Below are positions 842 through 40,601 of a stretch of DNA of 40,601 nt, in pieces. Source of the stretch: a virus. Taxonomy: Duplodnaviria > Caudoviricetes. The notes under the pieces were generated by a model. That model was not told the DNA's origin. It saw nothing but the letters and a program-made list of their open reading frames with translations, and searched no databases. Both the position numbers and the translations under genes were made by a program. The stretch spans positions 1-40,601 of the IMG/VR virus record IMGVR_UViG_3300037462_000913. The stretch is one strand, 5' to 3'. The first letter of the stretch is position 1. Each line of letters starts with the position of its first letter.

Positions 842-1651
842 TCAAACCGGCCAATTCGAGATGATCAGCTCGCCCCGGCTGGCCTCCTCAACCGTCTTCT
901 TCGACCCCACCGAATAGGTCGTCCGGACCTCGGTCAGGTGGAACCGGGCGAAGATCTGGCGGACGTCGGGGTGGTCGTTCAGGGACAGGAGGAACCGGCC
1001 CTTCAGCCGCCCGAGCTGCTCGGCCATGTCCTCGAATCGGGCGCGGGTGAAGAGGCCGGGCCCATAGTCGCCCTCGTTTCCGTAGTAGGGCGGGTCGAGG
1101 TAGAAGAGCGTGCCTGGACGGTCCAGCCGGTCGATGAAGGCGGCATAGTCCAGGTTCATGACGGTGACGCCGGACAGGCGCGTGTGCAGGGCCTCCAGGT
1201 CCGGCTCCAGCGTCGTCAGGTTGAACCTCGCCGGGCGCTCGGTCGCCACGCCAAAGTTGCGCCCGCTGATCTTGCCGCCGAATGCCAGGCGCTGAAGGTA
1301 GAGGAAGCGCGCCGCCCGTTGCAGGTCGGTCAGGGTCTCAGGGGCGACGGCGACCAGGCGGTCGAAGTTGGCCTGGGTCGTGATCTGGAATCGGAGGAGA
1401 TCGAGGAAGGCGACGTAGTGCTCCTGAAGCATCCGGAACAGGGTGTAGACCTCGCGGTGCCGGTCATTGATGAACTCGGCCCGTGGACGTCGTGTCCGCC
1501 GCAGGAAGATGCCGCCCATGCCGACGAAGGGCTCGGCATAGGTGTCGTGGGTGTCGCGGTCGATGATGGCGCAGAGGCGCTTGGCCAGGTTGCGCTTGCC
1601 GCCGAGGTAGGGGGCAATCGGGCGGATCGGGTGAACGTCCAGCTGGGGCAT
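842..1651 (-). CDS. dam: D12-class N6-adenine DNA methyltransferase (Dam-like) at the Mu mom position
   Basis: YLGGK, EPFVGMGG, IND and YLDPPY motifs; AAGGA RBS before ATG 1651. Confidence 0.92.
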   Translation of the reverse strand: MPQLDVHPIRPIAPYLGGKRNLAKRLCAIIDRDTHDTYAEPFVGMGGIFLRRTRRPRAEFINDRHREVYTLFRMLQEHYVAFLDLLRFQITTQANFDRLVAVAPETLTDLQRAARFLYLQRLAFGGKISGRNFGVATERPARFNLTTLEPDLEALHTRLSGVTVMNLDYAAFIDRLDRPGTLFYLDPPYYGNEGDYGPGLFTRARFEDMAEQLGRLKGRFLLSLNDHPDVRQIFARFHLTEVRTTYSVGSKKTVEEASRGELIISNWPV

Positions 1652-1753
1652 TTGGCACGATTCCTTAACGGTTCTGCCCGACCTTCCGGGGTGCGGGCGC
1701 GGCCATAAGGTTCGTCTGGTCGGCGGGGCCTTGGTGATGCGGGACCCCGTTTT

Positions 1754-1777
1754 GAAGGGGTGCTTCAACACCCCTTC
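1754..1777. promoter_or_regulatory. 9-bp perfect inverted repeat upstream of dam
   Basis: GAAGGGGTG-cttcaa-CACCCCTTC. Confidence 0.55.
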
Positions 1778-1795
1778 GAACGCCCGTGCGGGACG

Positions 1796-2152
1796 TCAGA
1801 AGTTGTCGACGATGGCGATCTTTTCGTAGCCGTCGGAAGGCATGCTTTCGGAGACGCCGGGGGACCAGGTGATGTGAAAGAGGCACAGCGCGCTTTTCCG
1901 TTCCACCGCCGTGTCGGTCGGCCCCCAGGCGTAGAAGGCGACGCCGTCGGCAGGCGTCAGCACCTCCTGGACCCCGTTCACGATATAGGTGCCGTCGGCG
2001 ATCTGGGCGGGCTGGTTGTCGATGAAGACCGCGCCGGTCGCTGCATCCCGTGCGCTGAAGGTCACGCCCGTCGCCTCGACCAGGCTGAAGCCAAAGTCAT
2101 AGGCCAGCCAGGGACGGCGGTTGCCGGCGCGGATGGTGAAGATCTTGCTCAT
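1796..2152 (-). CDS. BppU N-terminal-like virion protein
   Basis: IRAGNRRP...Y.W...DT...F.ITW..G..E.MPSDGY pattern; true start is ATG 2152, coupled to the upstream stop. Confidence 0.65.
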   Translation of the reverse strand: MSKIFTIRAGNRRPWLAYDFGFSLVEATGVTFSARDAATGAVFIDNQPAQIADGTYIVNGVQEVLTPADGVAFYAWGPTDTAVERKSALCLFHITWSPGVSESMPSDGYEKIAIVDNF

Positions 2153-17049: not shown

Positions 17050-17535
17050 TCAAAGGGGCTCGCCCGCAGCCTCGCTCAGGTAGTCGCCGATGATGTCCAG
17101 GACCTGCACCTCGTCCTCGGCCGAGACGCCCAGGAAGGGCCGCGCCGGGATGTCGCCCCACAGGTGCGGGAAGGCCGACTTCGATCCCCCGAACTGCTGC
17201 ATGGCGGCATAGACCATGGGCGAGCCCCATTCGACCCGGTCGGGGAACGCCTCGTAGTTGATGGTCGAGGACAGGGCACCCGAGGGGCCAAACAGGGGCC
17301 GCGTGTCCAGCCGGTTGGTCCGCCGCCCGCCCTGGGCCGCGATGGTCACCGGCGACTTTGGGGCCCAGACCGACCCGTCCGGCGCGCGCCCGGAGGGGAA
17401 ACGGTCGATGGTCGATTTGACGAAATACTCGCCCAGGTGCTGCATCAACGGCAGGGGGTTTTCCAAGGCCGCCCAGACGCGCTCCAGCGCGGGAGTGATC
17501 TCGTCAGTCTGGATGATGATGGTCGGGGTGGTCAT
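17050..17535 (-). CDS. phage virion morphogenesis protein (Mu gp31/G)
   Basis: RF..G.APDG..W, YAAMQQFGG, IPARPFLG.S. Confidence 0.92.
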   Translation of the reverse strand: MTTPTIIIQTDEITPALERVWAALENPLPLMQHLGEYFVKSTIDRFPSGRAPDGSVWAPKSPVTIAAQGGRRTNRLDTRPLFGPSGALSSTINYEAFPDRVEWGSPMVYAAMQQFGGSKSAFPHLWGDIPARPFLGVSAEDEVQVLDIIGDYLSEAAGEPL

Positions 17536-17568
17536 GCGCAGGCCTCCGGTCTGGGGGCCATCGCCCGA

Positions 17569-17886
17569 TCAGGCAGCGAACTCGTAGGCCCGGACTGACG
17601 TCGCGATCCGGTAAAGGTCCGGATCGTCCTCGGCAACGCCCTGGTCAACCGCGATCCGCGTTTCAGCGTTGAAATGGTCGACAAGGATCTTCTCGGCGGC
17701 ATCAAGGCTGGGCGCTGCGCGGAAGGCCGACTGGAACGCTTCCGTCCGCTCGGCCGCAGCCTCGATGTCGAAGCCCGCCGCAATCCAGCGGTCCACCTGG
17801 GCCGCCGTGCCGAGATAGGGCACAAAGGTATAGCGACCGGATGCGTGAACCACGCGCCGCCCCCCTTCATCCCATCTGCTCTGCAT
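17569..17886 (-). CDS. putative immunity protein for the MuF-ART toxin
   Basis: GGAGG RBS; overlaps the toxin 3' end; function inferred from position only. Confidence 0.6.
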   Translation of the reverse strand: MQSRWDEGGRRVVHASGRYTFVPYLGTAAQVDRWIAAGFDIEAAAERTEAFQSAFRAAPSLDAAEKILVDHFNAETRIAVDQGVAEDDPDLYRIATSVRAYEFAA

Positions 17887-19273
17887 GTCGTGCCTCCTGA
17901 GGCAGGTCGCTCCATTTCCGGCGCGGCTCCTCGACGACTTCGAGGTACAGCACGCCGTCGCGTTCCTGCTTTGCCAAGATGGTGAACTGAAGGCCCGATG
18001 GCAAGAGGACCTCCTCTTCTTTGTCGGGGTATTGCGACAGAAGGTGAATGTCCCGTCCGCTTGTCGTGCGAATGTAGAACTGGATCGGACCGGAGAACGC
18101 CTTCTCCGGCACCCGGGAGGAGCTGGTCAGGCCTTCAAAGCTGAACCGAGTGCCGACCGGCGCGTCCCGGAAGAAGTCCGCCATCCGCGTCGTCGGCATT
18201 GGGATGCCCCTGACCGTAGTGCCGGAAAACGCAGGCAGGCGGCGCAGCGCGTTGTCGATGATCTGGACCAGCCGCAAAGCCTCGGGCTGCGCGTCGGCCC
18301 CAAGCGCCTTCTGACGAACAGCCATGTTCAAGCGCGCGTGATACGGGCCGGTGTATACGTGAATGGCGGCTGCCTCGGCCGCCGTGATCTGCGTCAGGCC
18401 TTCCGATTGCTGTCGCTGCCGCATCTCATCGATGATCTCGCCCACACGACCCACGCCGACCGCTTTCATCAGCTCGCGCACTTCGCGACCCGAGGGCCGG
18501 AAGGTGAGGGCCGTCAGATCTTCGACCAGGTTGTCGCCCAAAGGCAACGGCAGCTGCTTTGCCTTCTCTCGAACCCTCGCGACGATGTCTTGCGCCACAC
18601 TGCGCCCTGGCGCATAGGCCCAGCCCTTGTCGATGCCGACCGGCGCGCCGGTCTTCGGGTCCAGCTTCTGCCAACCATCGGGCAGCTCTTTCCCCGGCTG
18701 GCCGCCCAGGCGCTGTGCCCCCTTGAAGGTGCGGGCGCCGACGACATAGCAGCTGCAGCCCCAGCCGTTCGGCGGCGCGTGGGTGGCCCAGAACGGATGA
18801 TCGGGCGGCAGAACCAGGCCGTCCCAGCCAAGGTGAATGATGCGCGGCTCGACCGATCCGCCGTGGCGGTAGACCCAAAGGGGGAAGCCGCCCTCGATCA
18901 GCTGGGCCATTCTGCCCGCCGCGTAGCTGGTCCGCATGTTCGTCCGGTAGATGACGCGCGTCCGCCAGGCCTCGCCTGCCTTGGTGCCTTCGCCGGTCCA
19001 GCCGTGCCAGCCGCGTTCCTCGACGATTCGGCGAAAGTCGGCGCGGAACTCCTCCAGGCTGGTCCCCCGGCTGATCGCCTTGTCGACGGCCGCGGCAAGG
19101 TCGGCCAGAAGGTCGGCCTTCGTCGCCCCAGCCACCATGAAGGCGCGGTCGTGTTGCTCTTGCCAGAGGTCGTCCCACTTGGCCGTCGGCACCAGGTTGC
19201 CAAGCCGCAGGCGGAAGGCGGCGACCGCCTCCTTGAAGGGCTTGCCGAAAGTGCCGCGCAGCTCGTCAGCCAC
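17867..19273 (-). CDS. MuF (gp30) minor head protein fused to a C-terminal ADP-ribosyltransferase
   Basis: RAF.VAG, Y.TN..TSY.AGR and H...DG...P.D.PFW..H.PPNGWGC.C; C-terminus YTG..H..LN, TVRG, TSSS, EEEVLL; GTG start 19273. Confidence 0.9.
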   Translation of the reverse strand: MADELRGTFGKPFKEAVAAFRLRLGNLVPTAKWDDLWQEQHDRAFMVAGATKADLLADLAAAVDKAISRGTSLEEFRADFRRIVEERGWHGWTGEGTKAGEAWRTRVIYRTNMRTSYAAGRMAQLIEGGFPLWVYRHGGSVEPRIIHLGWDGLVLPPDHPFWATHAPPNGWGCSCYVVGARTFKGAQRLGGQPGKELPDGWQKLDPKTGAPVGIDKGWAYAPGRSVAQDIVARVREKAKQLPLPLGDNLVEDLTALTFRPSGREVRELMKAVGVGRVGEIIDEMRQRQQSEGLTQITAAEAAAIHVYTGPYHARLNMAVRQKALGADAQPEALRLVQIIDNALRRLPAFSGTTVRGIPMPTTRMADFFRDAPVGTRFSFEGLTSSSRVPEKAFSGPIQFYIRTTSGRDIHLLSQYPDKEEEVLLPSGLQFTILAKQERDGVLYLEVVEEPRRKWSDLPQEARHAEQMG

Positions 19274-20906
19274 CTTTGCCCTCGCTGTCACGCAAGGCGG
19301 CGACCCGGCCCCCGGCGTGGCCCGCCATCATCGCCTCGGCCAGGATCTGGGCAAAGTCGCTGACGTCGAGGTTCGGGTAGGCTTCCAGGAACATCTCCCG
19401 CACCTCGGCCAGGCTTCCGGCCGTCTCCATCATCGCTTCAAGCTGGCCGAGGATCTTCTCCATCATCGGGTCCAGCGCCACCGCCAGACCGTCGACCAGG
19501 GGGTCAATTTCGGACCCCGCAGGATTTGCGCTCTGAAGGGCCTTGGCGGGGGTCTCGGGCGCGGTGATACGTCCGGAAGGCTCACCCCGTTTAAAAACGC
19601 CGCTTTCGCTTTTAATTTCGGAATTCGGCGGCGGCGGCTCGGTCGCAGATGCAGCCGGACCGGTCGGGCGCATCAGTTTGGCCCCCGGTTTGGGGTCCGA
19701 CAGGTTGAACTTGTCCCTTACCTCGCCCTGGTCGATTTCCAGGCCCCGGTCGATCAGCGGCACGATCGCCGACGAGAAGGCAGCAAGGTCCTCCTGCTCG
19801 GGCTCCTCGATCTTGATCCGGGGGTAGACCTTCAGCGGGCCGAAGTTCAGCTGCATCCAGGGACGGATCAGATCCCGGTTCAGGATCGCCGCCAGCGCCC
19901 GGCCGTCGGCCGTCTGGATCGACTTCTGCACCTCGCGGTGTTCCTTGCCCGACCCCAGGCCCCCGGTCACCGCGTCGGTTGTCGCGGTCTGGCCCAGGAC
20001 ACCCTTCGACACCTGCTGGTCCAGCCAGTCGGCGCGCTTGAGGTACAGGTCGGTCGAGGCCCCGACGTTCGAAGTCTCGACAAAGTCGATGGTCATCGAT
20101 TCCGGGATGATGGCAGCGCAATCGCCCGCGATGTTCGACACCGCCCGGAAGAGGGTGTTCTTGTCGTCCTCGCTTGCCCCCGGCCCGAACTTGCCCACCC
20201 GCAGGGGCTGGCCGAAGGTCTGGGTGAAGATCGCCCAGTCGCGCTGGGTGTAGGCCTTGAACATCCAGGCCCAGGCCGCGACCCGCGCCAGGCCGGAGCG
20301 GAGGCCGAGGCCCGACTTCGCCTTGATCTGGGCGAAGATGAACTTGAAGGCGGGCAGCGGCAGCTCCTGCCCGCTGTCGCCCAGCATCAGCGGCGTGGCC
20401 AGGTTCTGCCGTTCGAAGCGGAACCAGCGCGGGTCGCGGTATTCCAGCCGGGCGGGCATCCACTGCCCCTCCGAGGTGTCCCAGAGGATCTCGGTGAAGC
20501 TGTAACCCTTGCCGATCGTGTCGAGGATGTCGAAAAGCTCGTCGGTCAGCTCGTCCCGCTTCAGCCAGGCACGAACCATCTCGGCATGACGCTCCGCCTC
20601 CGGGCTGTCATCCCCGGCCTCGACGCTGATCGGCATCTGGGTCACCGCCCGACGCCGGGTGCCAAGGACGCCCAGGTAGTGCAGGTCGCGTTCCTCAATC
20701 GTCTCGGCAAGCTCAAGGTAGCGGACCGGGTCGCCCTGGTCGGCCTCGCGCAGGATGTTCGCCAGCCGCACAGGATTCAGACCGTCGGCCGGATAGCCGG
20801 GCATCGGGTTGCGCACACCACCCAGGGTGGCGGCCGCAACCTCGGCCTTCAGGTCGGCCTTGCGGACGGGCTGGCCACGGTGATCGAGCAGCTGGGCGGT
20901 TTTCAT
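19266..20906 (-). CDS. portal protein (Mu gp29, DUF935)
   Basis: EERDLHY..VL..RR.AV, W..F.Q.FG.P.RVGK, SK.VLGQT.T, H.EV. Confidence 0.94.
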   Translation of the reverse strand: MKTAQLLDHRGQPVRKADLKAEVAAATLGGVRNPMPGYPADGLNPVRLANILREADQGDPVRYLELAETIEERDLHYLGVLGTRRRAVTQMPISVEAGDDSPEAERHAEMVRAWLKRDELTDELFDILDTIGKGYSFTEILWDTSEGQWMPARLEYRDPRWFRFERQNLATPLMLGDSGQELPLPAFKFIFAQIKAKSGLGLRSGLARVAAWAWMFKAYTQRDWAIFTQTFGQPLRVGKFGPGASEDDKNTLFRAVSNIAGDCAAIIPESMTIDFVETSNVGASTDLYLKRADWLDQQVSKGVLGQTATTDAVTGGLGSGKEHREVQKSIQTADGRALAAILNRDLIRPWMQLNFGPLKVYPRIKIEEPEQEDLAAFSSAIVPLIDRGLEIDQGEVRDKFNLSDPKPGAKLMRPTGPAASATEPPPPNSEIKSESGVFKRGEPSGRITAPETPAKALQSANPAGSEIDPLVDGLAVALDPMMEKILGQLEAMMETAGSLAEVREMFLEAYPNLDVSDFAQILAEAMMAGHAGGRVAALRDSEGKGG

Positions 20907-27370: not shown

Positions 27371-28050
27371 GACGCGGCCTCGTAGTCGCCCGGCCGGGTC
27401 AAGCGCAGGCTGCACGGGGCGATCCAGTCAAAGCTGGTGAACGTCCCGCTCGACCACTTCGTCCAGACCACCCAGCAATAGGCCGTGGCACTGGACGGCT
27501 TGCGTACGACGAAAGCCTGTTCCTTCTCGGACCAGGTCTCGACTGCCACCTGCGGGTTGACCAGCTTGCCCTTGTGCATAACGACCCGTTCGGTGAACTG
27601 CAGGATCAGGCTCGGCCGGTGGACCGCGAACAGGTCGCGATGCCTGCTCATACTTTCAAGGAACGCAAGGCGGACGATCACGGCGACATGGTCGCTGCAC
27701 TCCAGCCCGCGCCGGATGAACTGCTCAGCCAGCCGGAAGGGCGGGTTCGTGATCGTCCAGTCGGTGCGCGCTGGCGGCGGGCCGAAGAGGTAGTCCTCGA
27801 CGGGGAAGCCCGCGCCATAGTCGTGGACATCGCTTGCTTCGACACGCCCGAAGAACTCGCGCAGCGGCCGGACCATGTGCCCACGGTTCGAGGCTGGCTC
27901 GCGGACCGACTTGTCCAAGAACGGCCCGAAGGACGGCATCAAATAGTCCATAAGAGCCCGCGTGGCCCAGGGCGGCGTCGGGAAATCGTCAAGGCTGTCA
28001 TGTGGCTCGGCCCGCTGCTGCATCACGGCCGAGGAACGGTTCTGGCTCAT
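27367..28050 (-). CDS. amino (N6A/N4C) DNA methyltransferase
   Basis: FPTP.W, EPASNRGHM (motif I variant), ITNPPF (motif IV). Confidence 0.85.
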   Translation of the reverse strand: MSQNRSSAVMQQRAEPHDSLDDFPTPPWATRALMDYLMPSFGPFLDKSVREPASNRGHMVRPLREFFGRVEASDVHDYGAGFPVEDYLFGPPPARTDWTITNPPFRLAEQFIRRGLECSDHVAVIVRLAFLESMSRHRDLFAVHRPSLILQFTERVVMHKGKLVNPQVAVETWSEKEQAFVVRKPSSATAYCWVVWTKWSSGTFTSFDWIAPCSLRLTRPGDYEAAS

Positions 28051-28313
28051 TCCTCGTCCTCCTCGCGGATCCGGCGGCGGCGCTTGCGGCCATTGCGCTG
28101 GGGGATGGACTTGACCGGAATGCAGCTGACCAGACGGTCCTCGACCAGGACATAGCGGATCCCGTCGGCCACTGTTGCAGCCGCCCCGGCCTCGATCGCC
28201 GCGTCGACCTTAAGGCCCAGCTCACGCCGCACGCTCTCGATATCGATACCTTGCACCCTCTCCAGGTGGCGCAGAACAGCGTGGTCGGTCACATAGGCGA
28301 TGGGCTTTTTCAC
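28047..28313 (-). CDS. hypothetical phage protein
   Basis: VTDHAVLR.LERV.G.D motif; GTG start coupled to GemA. Confidence 0.75.
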   Translation of the reverse strand: MKKPIAYVTDHAVLRHLERVQGIDIESVRRELGLKVDAAIEAGAAATVADGIRYVLVEDRLVSCIPVKSIPQRNGRKRRRRIREEDEE

Positions 28314-28747
28314 AGCTCGATCCCCGCCCGCGCACACATGCCCTTCAGCGCCTCGATCACCGTGGCGATCTGGCGATGGTCCTGCATGGCGTCGATGTCG
28401 AAGACGGCCGCGCCCCAGGCCTTCTCGAACCGCGCGCGGATGAAGGCATTCAGCCCCTTGGCCCCGCCCTGGGTGACGGCCCCGGCCTTGTGCAGCTTGC
28501 CCCACAGGACATGGGCGAACCGGACGTCAGCCCGCTTCGCCGCCGGGCGCTTGGCCCGGGCCTTGCCCGCATGGGGATTGAACCCGCGCTCCTTCAGAGC
28601 GGTGACCAGCTTGTTCAGGTCGCCCTCGTCCATGTCATGCATGGACTCCTTGCCGGTGACAACCAGCTGCAGATCGCGCCGGGTCTCCCCGTCGATCCCC
28701 AGCTCGCGGCAGCCGACATGGACAAGTTTCTGCAGGGCGCGGGTCAT
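28310..28747 (-). CDS. gemA: GemA / Mu gp16 family regulatory protein
   Basis: HV..RELG.D, TGK.S, L..RGF, LW..L..AG, L..FI, VIEALK. Confidence 0.9.
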   Translation of the reverse strand: MTRALQKLVHVGCRELGIDGETRRDLQLVVTGKESMHDMDEGDLNKLVTALKERGFNPHAGKARAKRPAAKRADVRFAHVLWGKLHKAGAVTQGGAKGLNAFIRARFEKAWGAAVFDIDAMQDHRQIATVIEALKGMCARAGIEL

Positions 28748-29073
28748 GGCAGTTCACCGACCACTGGGATCGGCACTAGGGGACAAAAGAACTGCCCCTT
28801 TGCGATGGTCAGGCCATCTTCACCTTCTGGGGGCCAAACGAAGAGCTGGAACTGGTGTCGGACCTCACGGCCAGGGTAGGTCCAGGCCGCAATAAACCAT
28901 CGCCAGTCGCCAGCGTACGCATAGATCGCATGGCTTTCGGAGGTTTCGATGTAGCTGAACAGATCGAGCTCGGGCAGCAGGCGGTAGAATGCTAGGTTGT
29001 GTACCAAGAGGTGCCGATAGGCCTCACGGCAGATTGCCTCCGACGCTGGCCGCCAATCCACAGGGCCGTTCAT
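28744..29073 (-). CDS. hypothetical protein (lower-GC accessory gene)
   Basis: ATGA coupling on both sides. Confidence 0.65.
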   Translation of the reverse strand: MNGPVDWRPASEAICREAYRHLLVHNLAFYRLLPELDLFSYIETSESHAIYAYAGDWRWFIAAWTYPGREVRHQFQLFVWPPEGEDGLTIAKGQFFCPLVPIPVVGELP

Positions 29074-29351
29074 TGCACCGCCCCCTTGCCCGACGCCTCC
29101 CGCTCAGCGGCGGCAGTAGAAACCAGTCGGAAACCCTCCTGAATGCCCTCCATCAGCGGCGTCCAGCAGGTGATCGCCTCGTGGAGATCGAGCGCAGAGT
29201 GGATTGTCATCGCCGCGCCAATCCCGCAGCCGATGGCGCGCAGCCGATCGTGCACGGGCATGTCTTCGGGGCGATCCTTGATCAGATCGATCACGGTCCC
29301 CGTGGCCGGGTCTACGAGCTGAAGGAATATGGTCACTTCAGGCGCGCTCAT
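29070..29351 (-). CDS. hypothetical protein
   Basis: Coupled ORF in the early operon. Confidence 0.65.
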   Translation of the reverse strand: MSAPEVTIFLQLVDPATGTVIDLIKDRPEDMPVHDRLRAIGCGIGAAMTIHSALDLHEAITCWTPLMEGIQEGFRLVSTAAAEREASGKGAVQ

Positions 29352-29737
29352 GACGCCACCCGAAGGTTAGTCGAACGCGCCCTCGCCATCGTTCGGATCA
29401 ACGGTCTCCCACCAGGTGGGCAGGGCCTTGTCCGGGTCGCCGCCGAGCCGCTGCGCGCCCCGTTCATGTCGCGCACCGGCAACGCTGCAGCCACATCTTC
29501 CCCGATGCGGCGGACGCCAGCGCTCCCAAAACGGATGATCTGGTGGCAGAACGACACCATCGAATGCCGCGTGGCTCTCGGGGCAGGAAATGGGGTCGTG
29601 GGCACGGTAGACCCACAGCGCGAACCCGCCCGTGCGAAGCTGGGCGAGACGCCGCTCCTTGAATGCTGCCCGATCCACGCCCGATTCCCTCTGCTGGCAG
29701 AGAGGATGATACCGACAAGGCTGCTCATGACGCCACC
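29346..29737. repeat. 15-bp direct repeat gctcatgacgccacc (29346-29360 and 29723-29737)
   Basis: Exact match flanking the mini-MuF gene. Confidence 0.85.
29367..29678 (-). CDS. standalone mini-MuF domain protein
   Basis: 46/86 ungapped identities (hand count) to this phage's own MuF; AGAGGGA RBS before GTG. Confidence 0.8.
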   Translation of the reverse strand: MDRAAFKERRLAQLRTGGFALWVYRAHDPISCPESHAAFDGVVLPPDHPFWERWRPPHRGRCGCSVAGARHERGAQRLGGDPDKALPTWWETVDPNDGEGAFD

Positions 29738-30021
29738 TCGCACTGAGCTTTGAAGTGCTCGATCAGCTCAACCTCAGAGGCCCCGACCAGGGCACCGTCG
29801 AACGGGCTGATCAAGGCGATGCTAAGGAATACCTTGTGCGTCAGCTTGAAGGTGAAGGGCGGAATGCCCTCGACCTCGGTCTTCTGGCCGTTCATCTCGA
29901 CCAGCCAGTCATCCGTCTCGCCGGTCCATAGGCCAGGGAGAAGATCGACGCGCTCGGCTCCTTTCGAGGTGGCCCATTCCACCAGCACGGCAAACAGTTC
30001 GGAAATCGGACGCTCGGTCAT
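29725..30021 (-). CDS. hypothetical protein
   Basis: ATG 30021 coupled to the ASCH stop. Confidence 0.7.
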   Translation of the reverse strand: MTERPISELFAVLVEWATSKGAERVDLLPGLWTGETDDWLVEMNGQKTEVEGIPPFTFKLTHKVFLSIALISPFDGALVGASEVELIEHFKAQCEVAS

Positions 30022-30428
30022 GCCGCCACCGCCATTTCCGTCTCGGCGGGGCGGGCCCACTCGATCAGAAGGCCGCGAAAACAGCCAGGAACCGTCTCCG
30101 GGTGGTTATCGCGCCAGAACGCCCACATGTCGACCGCGTCGGTGAACCCGTCGCGCAGGGCGAATGCGTCAAGGTCTCGAACCGGAACACAATCGGTGAA
30201 GATCCGGGCGATCTCGCCCTCCCGGAAGGTGATCTTGACATTCATCACCGTCAGGCAGGGCGTGTCGGGCAGGATGCGCTGGCAATGTGCGGTCCGCATG
30301 CCGGAATAAAGCTGCAGCAGCTCGCCCGGTCGGGCATGGCGGCGCAGGCCTACGGCGCGGATCGTCTGGGTCTTCAGACCCTGACGGATCGGCTCGATGA
30401 AACGCGGTTTGAAACTGTAGGCAACCAT
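30018..30428 (-). CDS. ASCH domain protein
   Basis: F...F...I..G.KTQTIR, G..LQLY.GMR, FA.RDGF. Confidence 0.85.
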   Translation of the reverse strand: MVAYSFKPRFIEPIRQGLKTQTIRAVGLRRHARPGELLQLYSGMRTAHCQRILPDTPCLTVMNVKITFREGEIARIFTDCVPVRDLDAFALRDGFTDAVDMWAFWRDNHPETVPGCFRGLLIEWARPAETEMAVAA

Positions 30429-30484
30429 GGTGTTCGTCCCCTTGTGGCAGCACCCCCGGCCCAGGCAGGGCCGGGGGCAAAGGA

Positions 30485-30751
30485 TCAGGCCTTGGGCTTG
30501 GCAGCCTTGAAGGTCATCGTGGTTGAGGCCGGGATGTCGACCGGCAGGCCGGTCTGCGGGTTCCGGCCCGTGCGGGCGGCTCGGGTCTTCATCTCGAAGG
30601 TGCCGAAGCCCTGGATGATCACCTTCTCTCCGGCGGCGGCACCGCCCCGGATCAGGTTCAGGAGGGCATCCACACAGGCGCCTGCGGCGGCTTTCGTCAT
30701 GCCCTGGGTTTCGGCCAGGTCGTCGATCAGTTTTCCTTTGGACACGGTCAT
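30485..30751 (-). CDS. hup: HU family DNA-binding protein
   Basis: V.I.GFGTF...RAAR.GRNPQTG..V.IPA....FK. Confidence 0.95.
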   Translation of the reverse strand: MTVSKGKLIDDLAETQGMTKAAAGACVDALLNLIRGGAAAGEKVIIQGFGTFEMKTRAARTGRNPQTGLPVDIPASTTMTFKAAKPKA

Positions 30752-30823
30752 GTCAGGTCTTCCTCTGGTGGCAGCGCCTCACTGGCGCGGGGTTGACCCG
30801 GCGGCGCACCGCCGGGGATGGGG

Positions 30824-30952
30824 TCACTGAACGGTCTGGGTGACCGCGATCAGCAAGGCCAGGCACAGGGCCAGCGCGGCCGCGTCCCAGCTGCGGCCGA
30901 GCAGGATGCCGAAGGCGGTGCAGGCCAGGAAGAACGCGAAGGCCTCAGCCAT
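30824..30952 (-). CDS. small two-TM membrane protein
   Basis: GGAGG RBS; hydrophobic 42 aa. Confidence 0.55.
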   Translation of the reverse strand: MAEAFAFFLACTAFGILLGRSWDAAALALCLALLIAVTQTVQ

Positions 30953-31178
30953 GATAAGCCTCCAGCGTGGCGCGTTGCGGCTGGGCCGGGTCGTTCTCTG
31001 GCCTCCAGTAGGGACGTTTGATGTCCACGCGCACATGTCAGAGAAGCGGCCCGGCAACGACCTTCACCGTTCCCTTGGCAACGGCATCTGCGACCTTCAG
31101 CCTGAGTTGGCCGTCGGGCTGGCAGACGAAGTCTGCGGGCAGGTCATGTATCCAGACAGGCAAGTACGCGTCTGCCAT
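30945..31178 (-). pseudogene. 77-codon ORF interrupted by an in-frame TGA at 31038-31040
   Basis: Frame continues after the TGA to an ...LEAYHG* end overlapping the next ATG. Confidence 0.5.
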
Positions 31179-31181
31179 GGC

Positions 31182-31835
31182 TCAGGCCTTCGCCATGTCG
31201 ATGGTCACGGGGTGCCAGGGCTGGTCGGCGCTGTCGCGGCGGTAGGCGCGGATGTAGGTCTGGGTGCCCTCGACCCGGATCGCATCGCGGATCGCCCGCA
31301 TGGCCTCTTTCCAGCGCGCGTCCTCGATTTCCAGCCGCAACAGGGTGAAGATCTCGGCCCGGTTGATCTGGCCTTCCTTGTCGGTGTTGAAGGCGCGGGT
31401 GACGATGGCCTGCAACTCGGGCCGGGCGCTGGCTGCCCATTCGTTCAGGCACTCGTCCAGCAGGGTCTTGGCGATCTGAAGCTCGGGTCCGAAGGTCAGT
31501 CGGTCTGCGACCTGGACCTGCACCTTCAGGCAGCCGTCAAAGCTGGTCAGGGTCATGTTGCCCTTCTTGCCGCCCAGGGTCGCGCCATACTGCTCGGCCA
31601 GAAGCGCCTCCAGCGCGCCAATGTCCTCGAAGGTGTGGGCCTTCAGCCGGGCGATCTGCTCGCTGGCCGCGACCATCCAGCCCATGATGCTGCGCACGGT
31701 CTGGTCGATCAGCAGGTCGGCGGGTTTGACGGTCGAGACGGGCAGGTAGCCGCCTTTGGCGTCTATGATCCGCTCGGTCCCGTCGATGGTGATGCGCCCG
31801 GTGGGGATCGGCGCGGGTTTGAACTCACTGGCCAT
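31182..31835 (-). CDS. DUF3164 family protein
   Basis: GGKKGN.TL.SFDG, FGPELQ.AK.L.DECL..W, W..AM.AI.D. Confidence 0.9.
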   Translation of the reverse strand: MASEFKPAPIPTGRITIDGTERIIDAKGGYLPVSTVKPADLLIDQTVRSIMGWMVAASEQIARLKAHTFEDIGALEALLAEQYGATLGGKKGNMTLTSFDGCLKVQVQVADRLTFGPELQIAKTLLDECLNEWAASARPELQAIVTRAFNTDKEGQINRAEIFTLLRLEIEDARWKEAMRAIRDAIRVEGTQTYIRAYRRDSADQPWHPVTIDMAKA

Positions 31836-39923: not shown

Positions 39924-40601
39924 GTGGAAACCTTTGTTCAAACTTTCAGCGATCTGATTCGTGATCGCTTGGCCGAGCTTCGGTTGAACGCTTTTGCAGC
40001 GGAGAACGCGGCTGGCCTGCCGCCAGACGCCATTCGCAACGTGCTCCGGTCCGAAAAGCAGGCCGGGCCCACACTCGCCCGCACAAAGGAAATCTGTGAT
40101 GCCCTCGGCCTGGAAATAAGGATCGGAACAAAGCAGGAGATGGCTGTCCTGGACGCCCCTCCAGTCGTCGGTACTAACGATGATGGCACTGCGCCGCCTT
40201 CCGGCTTCCTGACCATCCCATGGCACGGTGCCGGACCAGGCTCAGGCAGCGCGCCTGTCGCCTTCTCGCGGGTCTGGCTGGAACGTCACCAGCTCGTGCC
40301 TGACTTTTTGCAGGCGATCCTTCCCGACCGTTACGAGATCTCGCCGCATCCGGGGGATGAGGTCGTCGCCCTCATCGACACCCGCATCGGTACCCGGTCC
40401 GGCCCTGGCCTTTGGTGTCTGCGGGAAGCTGGGCGCGTGTTGGTCGCTAGGATGACCTTCGCGGGGGACCAGGCCGTCATTCACCCCACCACACCGGACG
40501 GCCCAGCCCGAATCCTCGACGCAAGATCTACCACCCTGATGGGCCTTGTCGGCCGCGTCGTCTGGCTCGGCCAGATCGTGCCCCTGAAGGGCAAGATCTG
40601 A
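39924..40601 (+). CDS. CI-like repressor (XRE HTH + degenerate S24 domain)
   Basis: AGL..DAIRNVLR....PTL....IC.ALGL; C-terminal VGRVVW; divergent orientation. Confidence 0.85.
   Translation: METFVQTFSDLIRDRLAELRLNAFAAENAAGLPPDAIRNVLRSEKQAGPTLARTKEICDALGLEIRIGTKQEMAVLDAPPVVGTNDDGTAPPSGFLTIPWHGAGPGSGSAPVAFSRVWLERHQLVPDFLQAILPDRYEISPHPGDEVVALIDTRIGTRSGPGLWCLREAGRVLVARMTFAGDQAVIHPTTPDGPARILDARSTTLMGLVGRVVWLGQIVPLKGKI

Follow-up and report, generated by a model that had tools for sequence, protein, structure and literature searches.

A standalone MuF core with a rewired predicted zinc site in the accessory region of a Mu-like provirus, and its possible use against competing phages

A 103-aa gene of a temperate Mu-like phage, here called mini-MuF, encodes a selected, standalone and rewired MuF core, found in accessory positions and uncoupled from the lytic translation chain. 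Sequence comparison makes it a truncated member of a large family of MuF-domain proteins that are not part of the virion; the family is divergent, and most of its proteins measure 170-210 aa. We tentatively read the mini-MuF as a DNA-binding-dead MuF mimic that is expressed apart from the lytic chain and spoils a MuF-dependent step of competing Mu-like phages, and we give this reading a probability of about 0.4. The figure covers expression in the lysogen, loss of DNA binding, competition for a partner site and harm to rival phages, which were inferred jointly.

The phage and its virion MuF

The window, i.e., the whole stretch of 40,601 nt that was analysed, is the complete provirus record of a temperate Mu-like phage, assigned by its transposase, transposition protein, Mu portal and GemA. 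Most of its minus-strand genes begin on the stop of the preceding gene, and the window and L083 are identical over 20,309 nt. The following features are relevant to the head region and to the accessory site:

17867..19291, minus strand: gene of the virion MuF-ART (474 aa), immediately following the portal gene (core matched by the mini-MuF, 18647-18934)
about 17957-18394, minus strand: ART domain of the MuF-ART, with R/STS-like/ExE motifs
17569..17886, minus strand: 105-aa gene after the MuF-ART, candidate ART immunity gene from its place
17532..17870, minus strand: second bridge frame (see below), which runs over the candidate immunity gene for 112 codons and joins the stop of MuF to the start of the gpG-like gene
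28310..28747, minus strand: gemA (PF06252), downstream anchor of the variable accessory site
30018..30428, minus strand: 136-aa gene (phrog_8581), upstream anchor of the accessory site

The accessory site (28744-30021, minus strand) between gemA and the 136-aa gene, which we take to be ASCH-like, is variable: L001 and L084 carry other genes there. Accessory-site genes of 98, 93 and 109 aa gave no Pfam, PHROG or PADLOC match. The ART tail of the virion protein matches PF01129 (E 5.6e-7) and PF03496 (E 1.4e-6). The 105-aa gene behind it, which likewise has no match in Pfam, PHROG or PADLOC, has a homologue of similar length after the ART MuF in all three ART carriers seen; a related gene comes after the ART MuF of L131. 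MuF polymorphic toxins with downstream immunity genes are described in the available part of PMC5576092, and the MuF-ART with its 105-aa gene fits that scheme. The mini-MuF differs from it, being devoid of a toxin domain, not downstream of a toxin and not tied to one toxin type; the place of an immunity protein directly after the toxin is filled by 17569-17886 and not by the mini-MuF.

The mini-MuF is a conserved gene

29367..29678, minus strand: mini-MuF gene, 103 aa, GTG start, MuF core only; C32-x3-H36 and C62-x-C64 form the predicted zinc site
29686..29692, minus strand: ribosome-binding site AGAGGGA, 7 nt 5' of the GTG
29723..29737, no strand assigned: 15-bp direct repeat, copy 1, ribosome site and ATGA junction
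29346..29360, no strand assigned: 15-bp direct repeat, copy 2, exact match to copy 1 at a spacing of 377 bp

The mini-MuF aligns without gaps to residues 120-215 of the phage's own MuF (nt 18647-18934) with 48/96 identities (E 2e-29). The similarity is not due to chance, the next-best tblastn match in the window having an E of 1.1. The original prediction, made from the window's letters, had counted 46/86 identities by hand (~18655-18913), which is a slightly shorter version of the same gapless alignment, and its reading of the anatomy was accurate: both motifs that it named (H...DG.VLPPDHPFW....PP....CxC and GAQRLGG) are found, the N-terminal 119 aa and the ART tail are both missing, the gene has its own ribosome-binding site, and 10.7 kb separate it from the matching MuF core among the head genes. 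The ORF stops 5 residues past the aligned core, without a C-terminal toxin domain. Three features had escaped that first description, namely the exact 15-bp repeat of ribosome site plus ATGA junction which bounds a 377-bp mini-MuF cassette, an overlapping 126-codon frame coupled to both neighbours, and a residue swap in the core.

Compared with the L001 copy, the mini-MuF differs at 8 first, 6 second and 31 third codon positions (dN 0.066, dS 0.60, dN/dS 0.11, p 1.6e-11), while the three neighbouring genes have dN/dS values of 0.11-0.21. The selection on the protein that had been suspected is thus purifying, with a ratio far from 1. Homologues with the same ends also exist: a search limited to 56-181 aa returned, out of 12 candidates, 7 clusters (90% identity) comprising 17 sequences, each of 102-103 aa. 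More divergent minis of 98-103 aa were located from DNA patterns in L175 and L178 (103-aa and 98-aa forms), and across homologues the position of the start is kept as ATG, GTG or TTG. The mini-MuF is a real, conserved gene and not a relic.

A family of MuF-domain proteins outside the virion

A profile search of 1.84 billion representatives produced 836 matches at E 0.001. Among the best 149 besides the query, 84 are 170-210 aa long, 16 are shorter, 8 measure 211-300 aa and 41 are longer; some of the short members, known as proteins without DNA context, may be fragments. A FastTree phylogeny was built on 207 core regions (273 candidates, 238 after coverage and duplicate filters, then thinning of those >80% alike), L143 and the virion MuF of L178 being left out for coverage. 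The mini-MuF falls in a 9-row clade (FastTree support 97), and 111 of the 119 short rows lie outside the subtree that holds all 88 virion rows (support 87), the other 8 lying inside; with 103 columns and long branches, the tree carries too little to establish a single origin of the short rows. Mean core identity is 40% among short rows vs 62% among virion rows.

When 116 virion cores are ordered by their identity to the mini-MuF, the own MuF comes 13th, and in none of seven pairs is the own MuF the closest match of its family member (ranks 3-75). A recent duplication of the own MuF was considered and ruled out by these ranks and the tree, together with third codon positions that are just 42% identical. 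The term "paralogue" used at first therefore holds as far as homology to the own MuF is concerned, but not in the sense of a copy of this phage's gene, as the tree indicates an old, separately evolving family. Four short proteins (P0095, P0042, P0075 and P0136) keep the virion-type motif or sit inside the virion subtree; they are possibly younger independent origins or fragments. Two virion MuFs of 713-729 aa (P0100 and P0158) have a large insertion inside the CxC motif, which resembles an intein.

The mini-MuF is a MuF homologue, yet by its features it belongs neither with the virion MuFs nor with the MuF toxins or their immunity proteins. It scores 18 bits against PF04233, below the curated cut-off of 29.6, as does L022 with 23.1; TIGR01641 matched 20/49 of the longer members at E <= 0.001, L022 reaching 23 vs a cut-off of 39.65. 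On the other side, the mini-MuF matches phrog_220 (E 1.5e-11). With the MuF1 minor head proteins (Mu gpF/gp30 and SPP1 gp7; PF04233, TIGR01641; including the "short MuF") it shares a homologous core and the predicted fold. It differs from them in being away from the portal gene (0/14 loci are directly after one), in being a second copy per phage, in lacking the N-terminal part, in scoring below the Pfam cut-off, and in being acidic, having lost His143 and Arg150 and gained a Cys. For comparison, the available part of PMC5576092 counts 614 muf genes in 611 phages. None of 13 proteins matched the catalogued defence systems (PADLOC 2023) at E 0.01, and the ESM Atlas returned only PF04233 clusters plus one unnamed cluster. 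In the literature searched, whose coverage leaves out most subscription journals, we found no description of standalone non-virion MuF copies, and the family is apparently undescribed.

Residue swap, charge and predicted fold

Residues H143, R150, H153, C179 and C181 are present in 88/88 virion rows. The short rows keep H153 (111/119), C179 (115/119) and C181 (117/119), but retain H143 in 11/119 and R150 in 8/119; at the column of P149, 97/119 short rows have a Cys, which occurs in 0/88 virion rows. In the mini-MuF itself, H143, P149 and R150 are replaced by A, C and P, and H153, C179 and C181 are kept. From this pattern we infer that the Cys replaces His143 in the zinc site. The core residues common with the virion MuF are conserved at >=90% in the family. 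The predicted pI is 4.9-6.6 in all 14 loci with DNA context vs 9.1 for the own MuF core, and is <7 in 81% of the 84 members of 170-210 aa. Since SPP1 gp7 is described as a portal-binding and DNA-binding protein (available part of PMC6316719), loss of DNA binding is a reasonable supposition, and by this analogy the mini-MuF likely no longer binds DNA.

Predicted structures are confident, with pLDDT values of 91.0 for the 103-aa mini-MuF and 96.2 for a 185-aa member. The best viral structure matches of the mini-MuF model are MuF-type, head-morphogenesis proteins. Searches of solved structures gave no clear match for the 185-aa or the 103-aa model (best Z 5.9 and 3.4), which does not make the modelled mini-MuF a new fold.

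Genomic positions and co-occurrence with virion MuF

Fourteen loci have DNA context. Nine are in the early operon (the window, L001, L084, L175, L178, L022, L174, L180 and L143), four are 3' of a repressor gene on the same strand (L141, PF00717; L181 and L108, phrog_4; and L182, whose repressor has no PHROG match and was assigned by position only), and one, L179, is among head genes, between the gpG-like and protease genes. In L108, one gene separates the repressor from the family member. Placing the gene in the "early region" was thus right for 9/14 loci and too narrow for the four that come just after a repressor gene. L179 (about 997-1755, plus strand) is a 252-aa member with a long insertion on a 5.4-kb Mu-like head-region fragment. 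The L143 member (1480-1929, minus strand; G390), directly before gemA, is without a middle stretch and the usual end, and is possibly decaying.

A virion MuF is also present in all nine elements whose completeness allowed a judgement; this count leaves out L179, L180 and L181 (15-41% fragments without one), L108, and L084 (a 3.7-kb contig). The tails of these nine virion MuFs are ART in three, weak MuF_C in two, without a Pfam match in two, unscanned in one and missing in one (262 aa, L182); the two closest minis are in carriers of ART-tailed MuF. Regulation of the MuF-ART, one of the initial proposals, is unlikely because the family is unmatched to the own MuF and occurs with ART, other or no tails. 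A toxin/immunity pairing has likewise lost ground, given the several tail types and the separate ~105-aa gene after all three ART MuFs.

Of the 401 host-family genomes, 22 yielded a match, and in 3 of the 22 a second copy lay outside the head genes (12 candidates scored per genome), while an order-wide pattern scan matched 2/401 genomes, the window's host and one other. The 6 and 77 matching records of GenBank phages have one place each and none has two; the 17 matching plasmid records also have one place each. Of 119 new loci from a DNA scan with variable gaps, just one was a family member, namely the L174 gene again, and the remainder was almost all out-of-frame noise.

A stop-free frame bridges the cargo

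29348..29728, minus strand: 126-codon bridge frame over the whole mini-MuF, with ATGA on the upstream stop and ATGA on the next start

Across the family gene, the +1 frame is stop-free in 9/9 early-operon loci vs 0/5 other loci (0 stops in 1,196 codons vs 18 in 1,019), or 7/7 vs 0/5 when three close relatives are collapsed (p 0.001). This bridge frame starts on the upstream stop in 7/9 loci and at its own ribosome site in 2/9; it ends with ATGA on the next start in 8/9 and inside the first codons of the next gene in L178. In four loci it extends over 467-585 codons, spanning an ORF6N gene and intergenic DNA, and across the ORF6N gene 0 stops are observed vs 2.7-4.4 expected from synonymous shuffles (P 0.001-0.04 each). 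Openness over the mini-MuF by itself argues little, because virion MuF cores also have few stops in this frame (9 in 800 codons, 2/8 open). Within-gene shuffles, too, leave it open in 40-100% of trials for 8/9 genes, so the case for the bridge frame rests on the end junctions and the long spans rather than on the window by itself.

The ORF6N cassette follows the MuF-like gene in L084 (990-2083), L022 (7863-8971), L174 (5973-7150) and L180; it consists of about 250 nt of intergenic DNA (with TTGACA in L084), the ORF6N gene and a gene of 66-72 aa, and the same bridge frame crosses it. ORF6N genes without a +2-frame stop over 174-189 codons are also present in L072, L033 and L042, loci collected for their virion MuF, which suggests bridge frames there too. 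In the window, L001 and L302, a bridge frame coupled at both ends also passes over the candidate immunity gene. Since ORF6N genes and the candidate ART immunity gene are also bridged, the device appears general to cargo in these phages.

The frame over the mini-MuF gives no sign of protein-level selection: its dN/dS of about 2 mirrors selection on the mini-MuF frame, and the leader peptides, compared by reading, share no sequence, so that a real protein was rejected. A programmed frameshift joining leader and mini-MuF was also discarded, as visual inspection showed no common slippery heptamer and the start codon keeps its place. Rfam gave 0 matches on 6 loci, which leaves the idea of a c4-type RNA ahead of the ORF6N genes unsupported. 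Translational coupling by ATGA overlaps is the nearest known arrangement; here, in addition, inserted cargo is traversed by a frame that has no stops and is coupled on either side. With the mini-MuF on the same strand, the bridge frame runs through the ribosome site of the cargo and could set its expression, which points to a general means by which phages with fully coupled operons could take up cargo and adjust it independently.

Translation and transcription control

29686..29705, minus strand: predicted hairpin, ribosome site paired with the pyrimidine tract just upstream
29706..29711, minus strand: TATCAT, possible -10 of an internal promoter, tentatively assigned, no canonical -35

The predicted cost of opening the ribosome site, computed on the 45 nt before the start, is 5.1-16.4 kcal/mol in the 9 early copies, 0.1-6.2 kcal/mol in the 5 other loci and, as a median, 4.2 in 32 genes of the window (early copies vs window genes, p 0.0007). 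When downstream bases are included it is 6.5 (window) and 3.4 kcal/mol (L001), values at which the advantage of the hairpin is largely gone and which are within the range of other genes. The whole leader of the mini-MuF folds no better than shuffles (z 0.93), and the same is true of three leaders overall.

L001 has TAACAT where the window has TATCAT. A consensus scan of 28000-31500 returned 0 promoters; 8/9 early copies have loose promoter-like hexamers whose ends lie 21-30 nt 5' of the start, so that a short transcript starting from them would be without the masking arm. Ribosomes travelling on the bridge frame could open the hairpin rather than block translation of the mini-MuF.

Possible function

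In the proposed mechanism, the Cys would take the place of His143 as zinc ligand, with the fold kept and the basic surface lost. The protein would be made independently of the lytic chain, together with the repressor or, in the window, from the internal promoter; on the long early mRNA, the hairpin and the bridge-frame ribosomes would hold it down, so that the phage's own heads are spared. It would then occupy the partner site of MuF (candidates are MuF itself, the portal and a host factor), and a superinfecting relative would make heads with faulty pilots or fail in DNA entry. Protection of the lysogen tends to be the role of genes that share a transcript with a repressor (lambda rexAB), and the four of 14 loci that follow a repressor on the same strand support this spoiling of competitors. 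The selection, the residue swap, the acidic charge, the non-cognate MuF pairing and the predicted masking of the ribosome sites support it as well, and a decoy or dominant-negative role, as first suggested, fits the anatomy deduced from the sequence. Its boldest form, in which the pilot protein of Mu-like phages has become a widespread anti-phage weapon, a zinc-rewired, DNA-blind poison of rival virions that is active in the lysogen and that bridge frame and hairpin silence on the lytic mRNA, seems doubtful to us.

Against the spoiling of competitors stand the 9/14 loci, the window included, that belong to the early lytic operon, a place where one would look for counter-defence genes at least as readily, as well as the position of L179 among head genes and the weakness of the window's internal promoter. 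Moreover, portal binding could reside in the N-terminal helices, which the mini-MuF is without. SPP1 offers a precedent in favour, since its virions form in the absence of gp7 but only about 25% of them are infectious (available part of PMC6316719); on the other hand, MuF is dispensable there, so the gain from spoiling might be modest. By analogy, the mini-MuF may work like Tab of the Pseudomonas prophage JBD26, which, according to the available part of PMC10884400, is expressed from the prophage and blocks the assembly of invaders. The proposed likeness is that of a small prophage protein which spoils invader virions and must be held off during the phage's own lytic cycle. As described there, the tape measure protein is the target of Tab, which anti-Tab counteracts, whereas the mini-MuF derives from the virion protein itself and its self-protection, if any, looks translational. 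We identified no anti-inhibitor gene comparable to anti-Tab.

Instead of harming rivals, the mini-MuF might serve counter-defence as an early-made decoy that soaks up a host immune sensor or protease recognising virion MuF. The early-operon location of 9/14 loci and the strong divergence of the short rows (40% mean core identity vs 62%) are in keeping with this, and L179 occupies an interval that, in Mu-like phages of Pseudomonas, we take to be the site of anti-CRISPR genes. Clustering of anti-CRISPRs in a single plasticity region is documented (available part of PMC4378225), and sensors of virion proteins exist (PMC10884400, in the part available). However, a decoy should track the own MuF, which it does not, and two invariant virion residues are lost; four loci follow a repressor, and no MuF-sensing defence was found in the literature searched. 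The balance leaves the decoy with a real but minor chance. Somewhat less probable is a new function without mimicry, in which the freed zinc-binding module serves some process of the host or the phage as its adaptor or regulator: the residue swap and charge reversal are consistent across >90 divergent members, there is a 252-aa form with an insertion, and L108 belongs to an element with a repressor and a helicase-like gene and no transposase among the ORFs scanned, but 9/9 judgeable elements also carry virion MuF, and the shared core residues remain highly conserved.

That constant presence of a virion MuF, with an ART tail in 3/9 carriers including those of the two closest minis, would suit a modulator of the own MuF acting on its dose, its loading into heads or toxin delivery. 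We consider this improbable, given the tail-less 262-aa MuF of L182, the want of cognate matching, the separate candidate immunity gene after ART MuFs, and second copies in 3 of 22 MuF-positive genomes (of 401; 12 candidates scored per genome). As for a decaying duplicate of a head gene, the internally shortened L143 (G390) and a mini-MuF GC3 of 0.72, below that of core genes, would be in line with it; for the mini-MuF it is largely refuted, with hardly any probability left, by the dN/dS, the common ends of the 17 sequences, the family-specific Cys and the position outside the virion subtree.

The function of the MuF domain, which about 35% of tailed phages encode, is called unknown in the available part of PMC5576092. 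A family that keeps the core while swapping two invariant residues marks a surface that is dispensable outside the virion, and the mini-MuF offers a confidently modelled handle of 103 aa on a fold without a solved match in the searches made. If it does block or decoy, the virion protein itself would have given rise to a protein of defence or counter-defence.

Near the end of the window (39924-40601, plus strand), a gene for a probable repressor of 225 aa, without a PHROG match at 1e-5, lies opposite a phrog_7669 gene. Just past this end in the host contig (L323, 4141-4745, minus strand), two small genes, of 96 aa and about 83-107 aa, follow the repressor, and one of them looks lipoprotein-like by eye.
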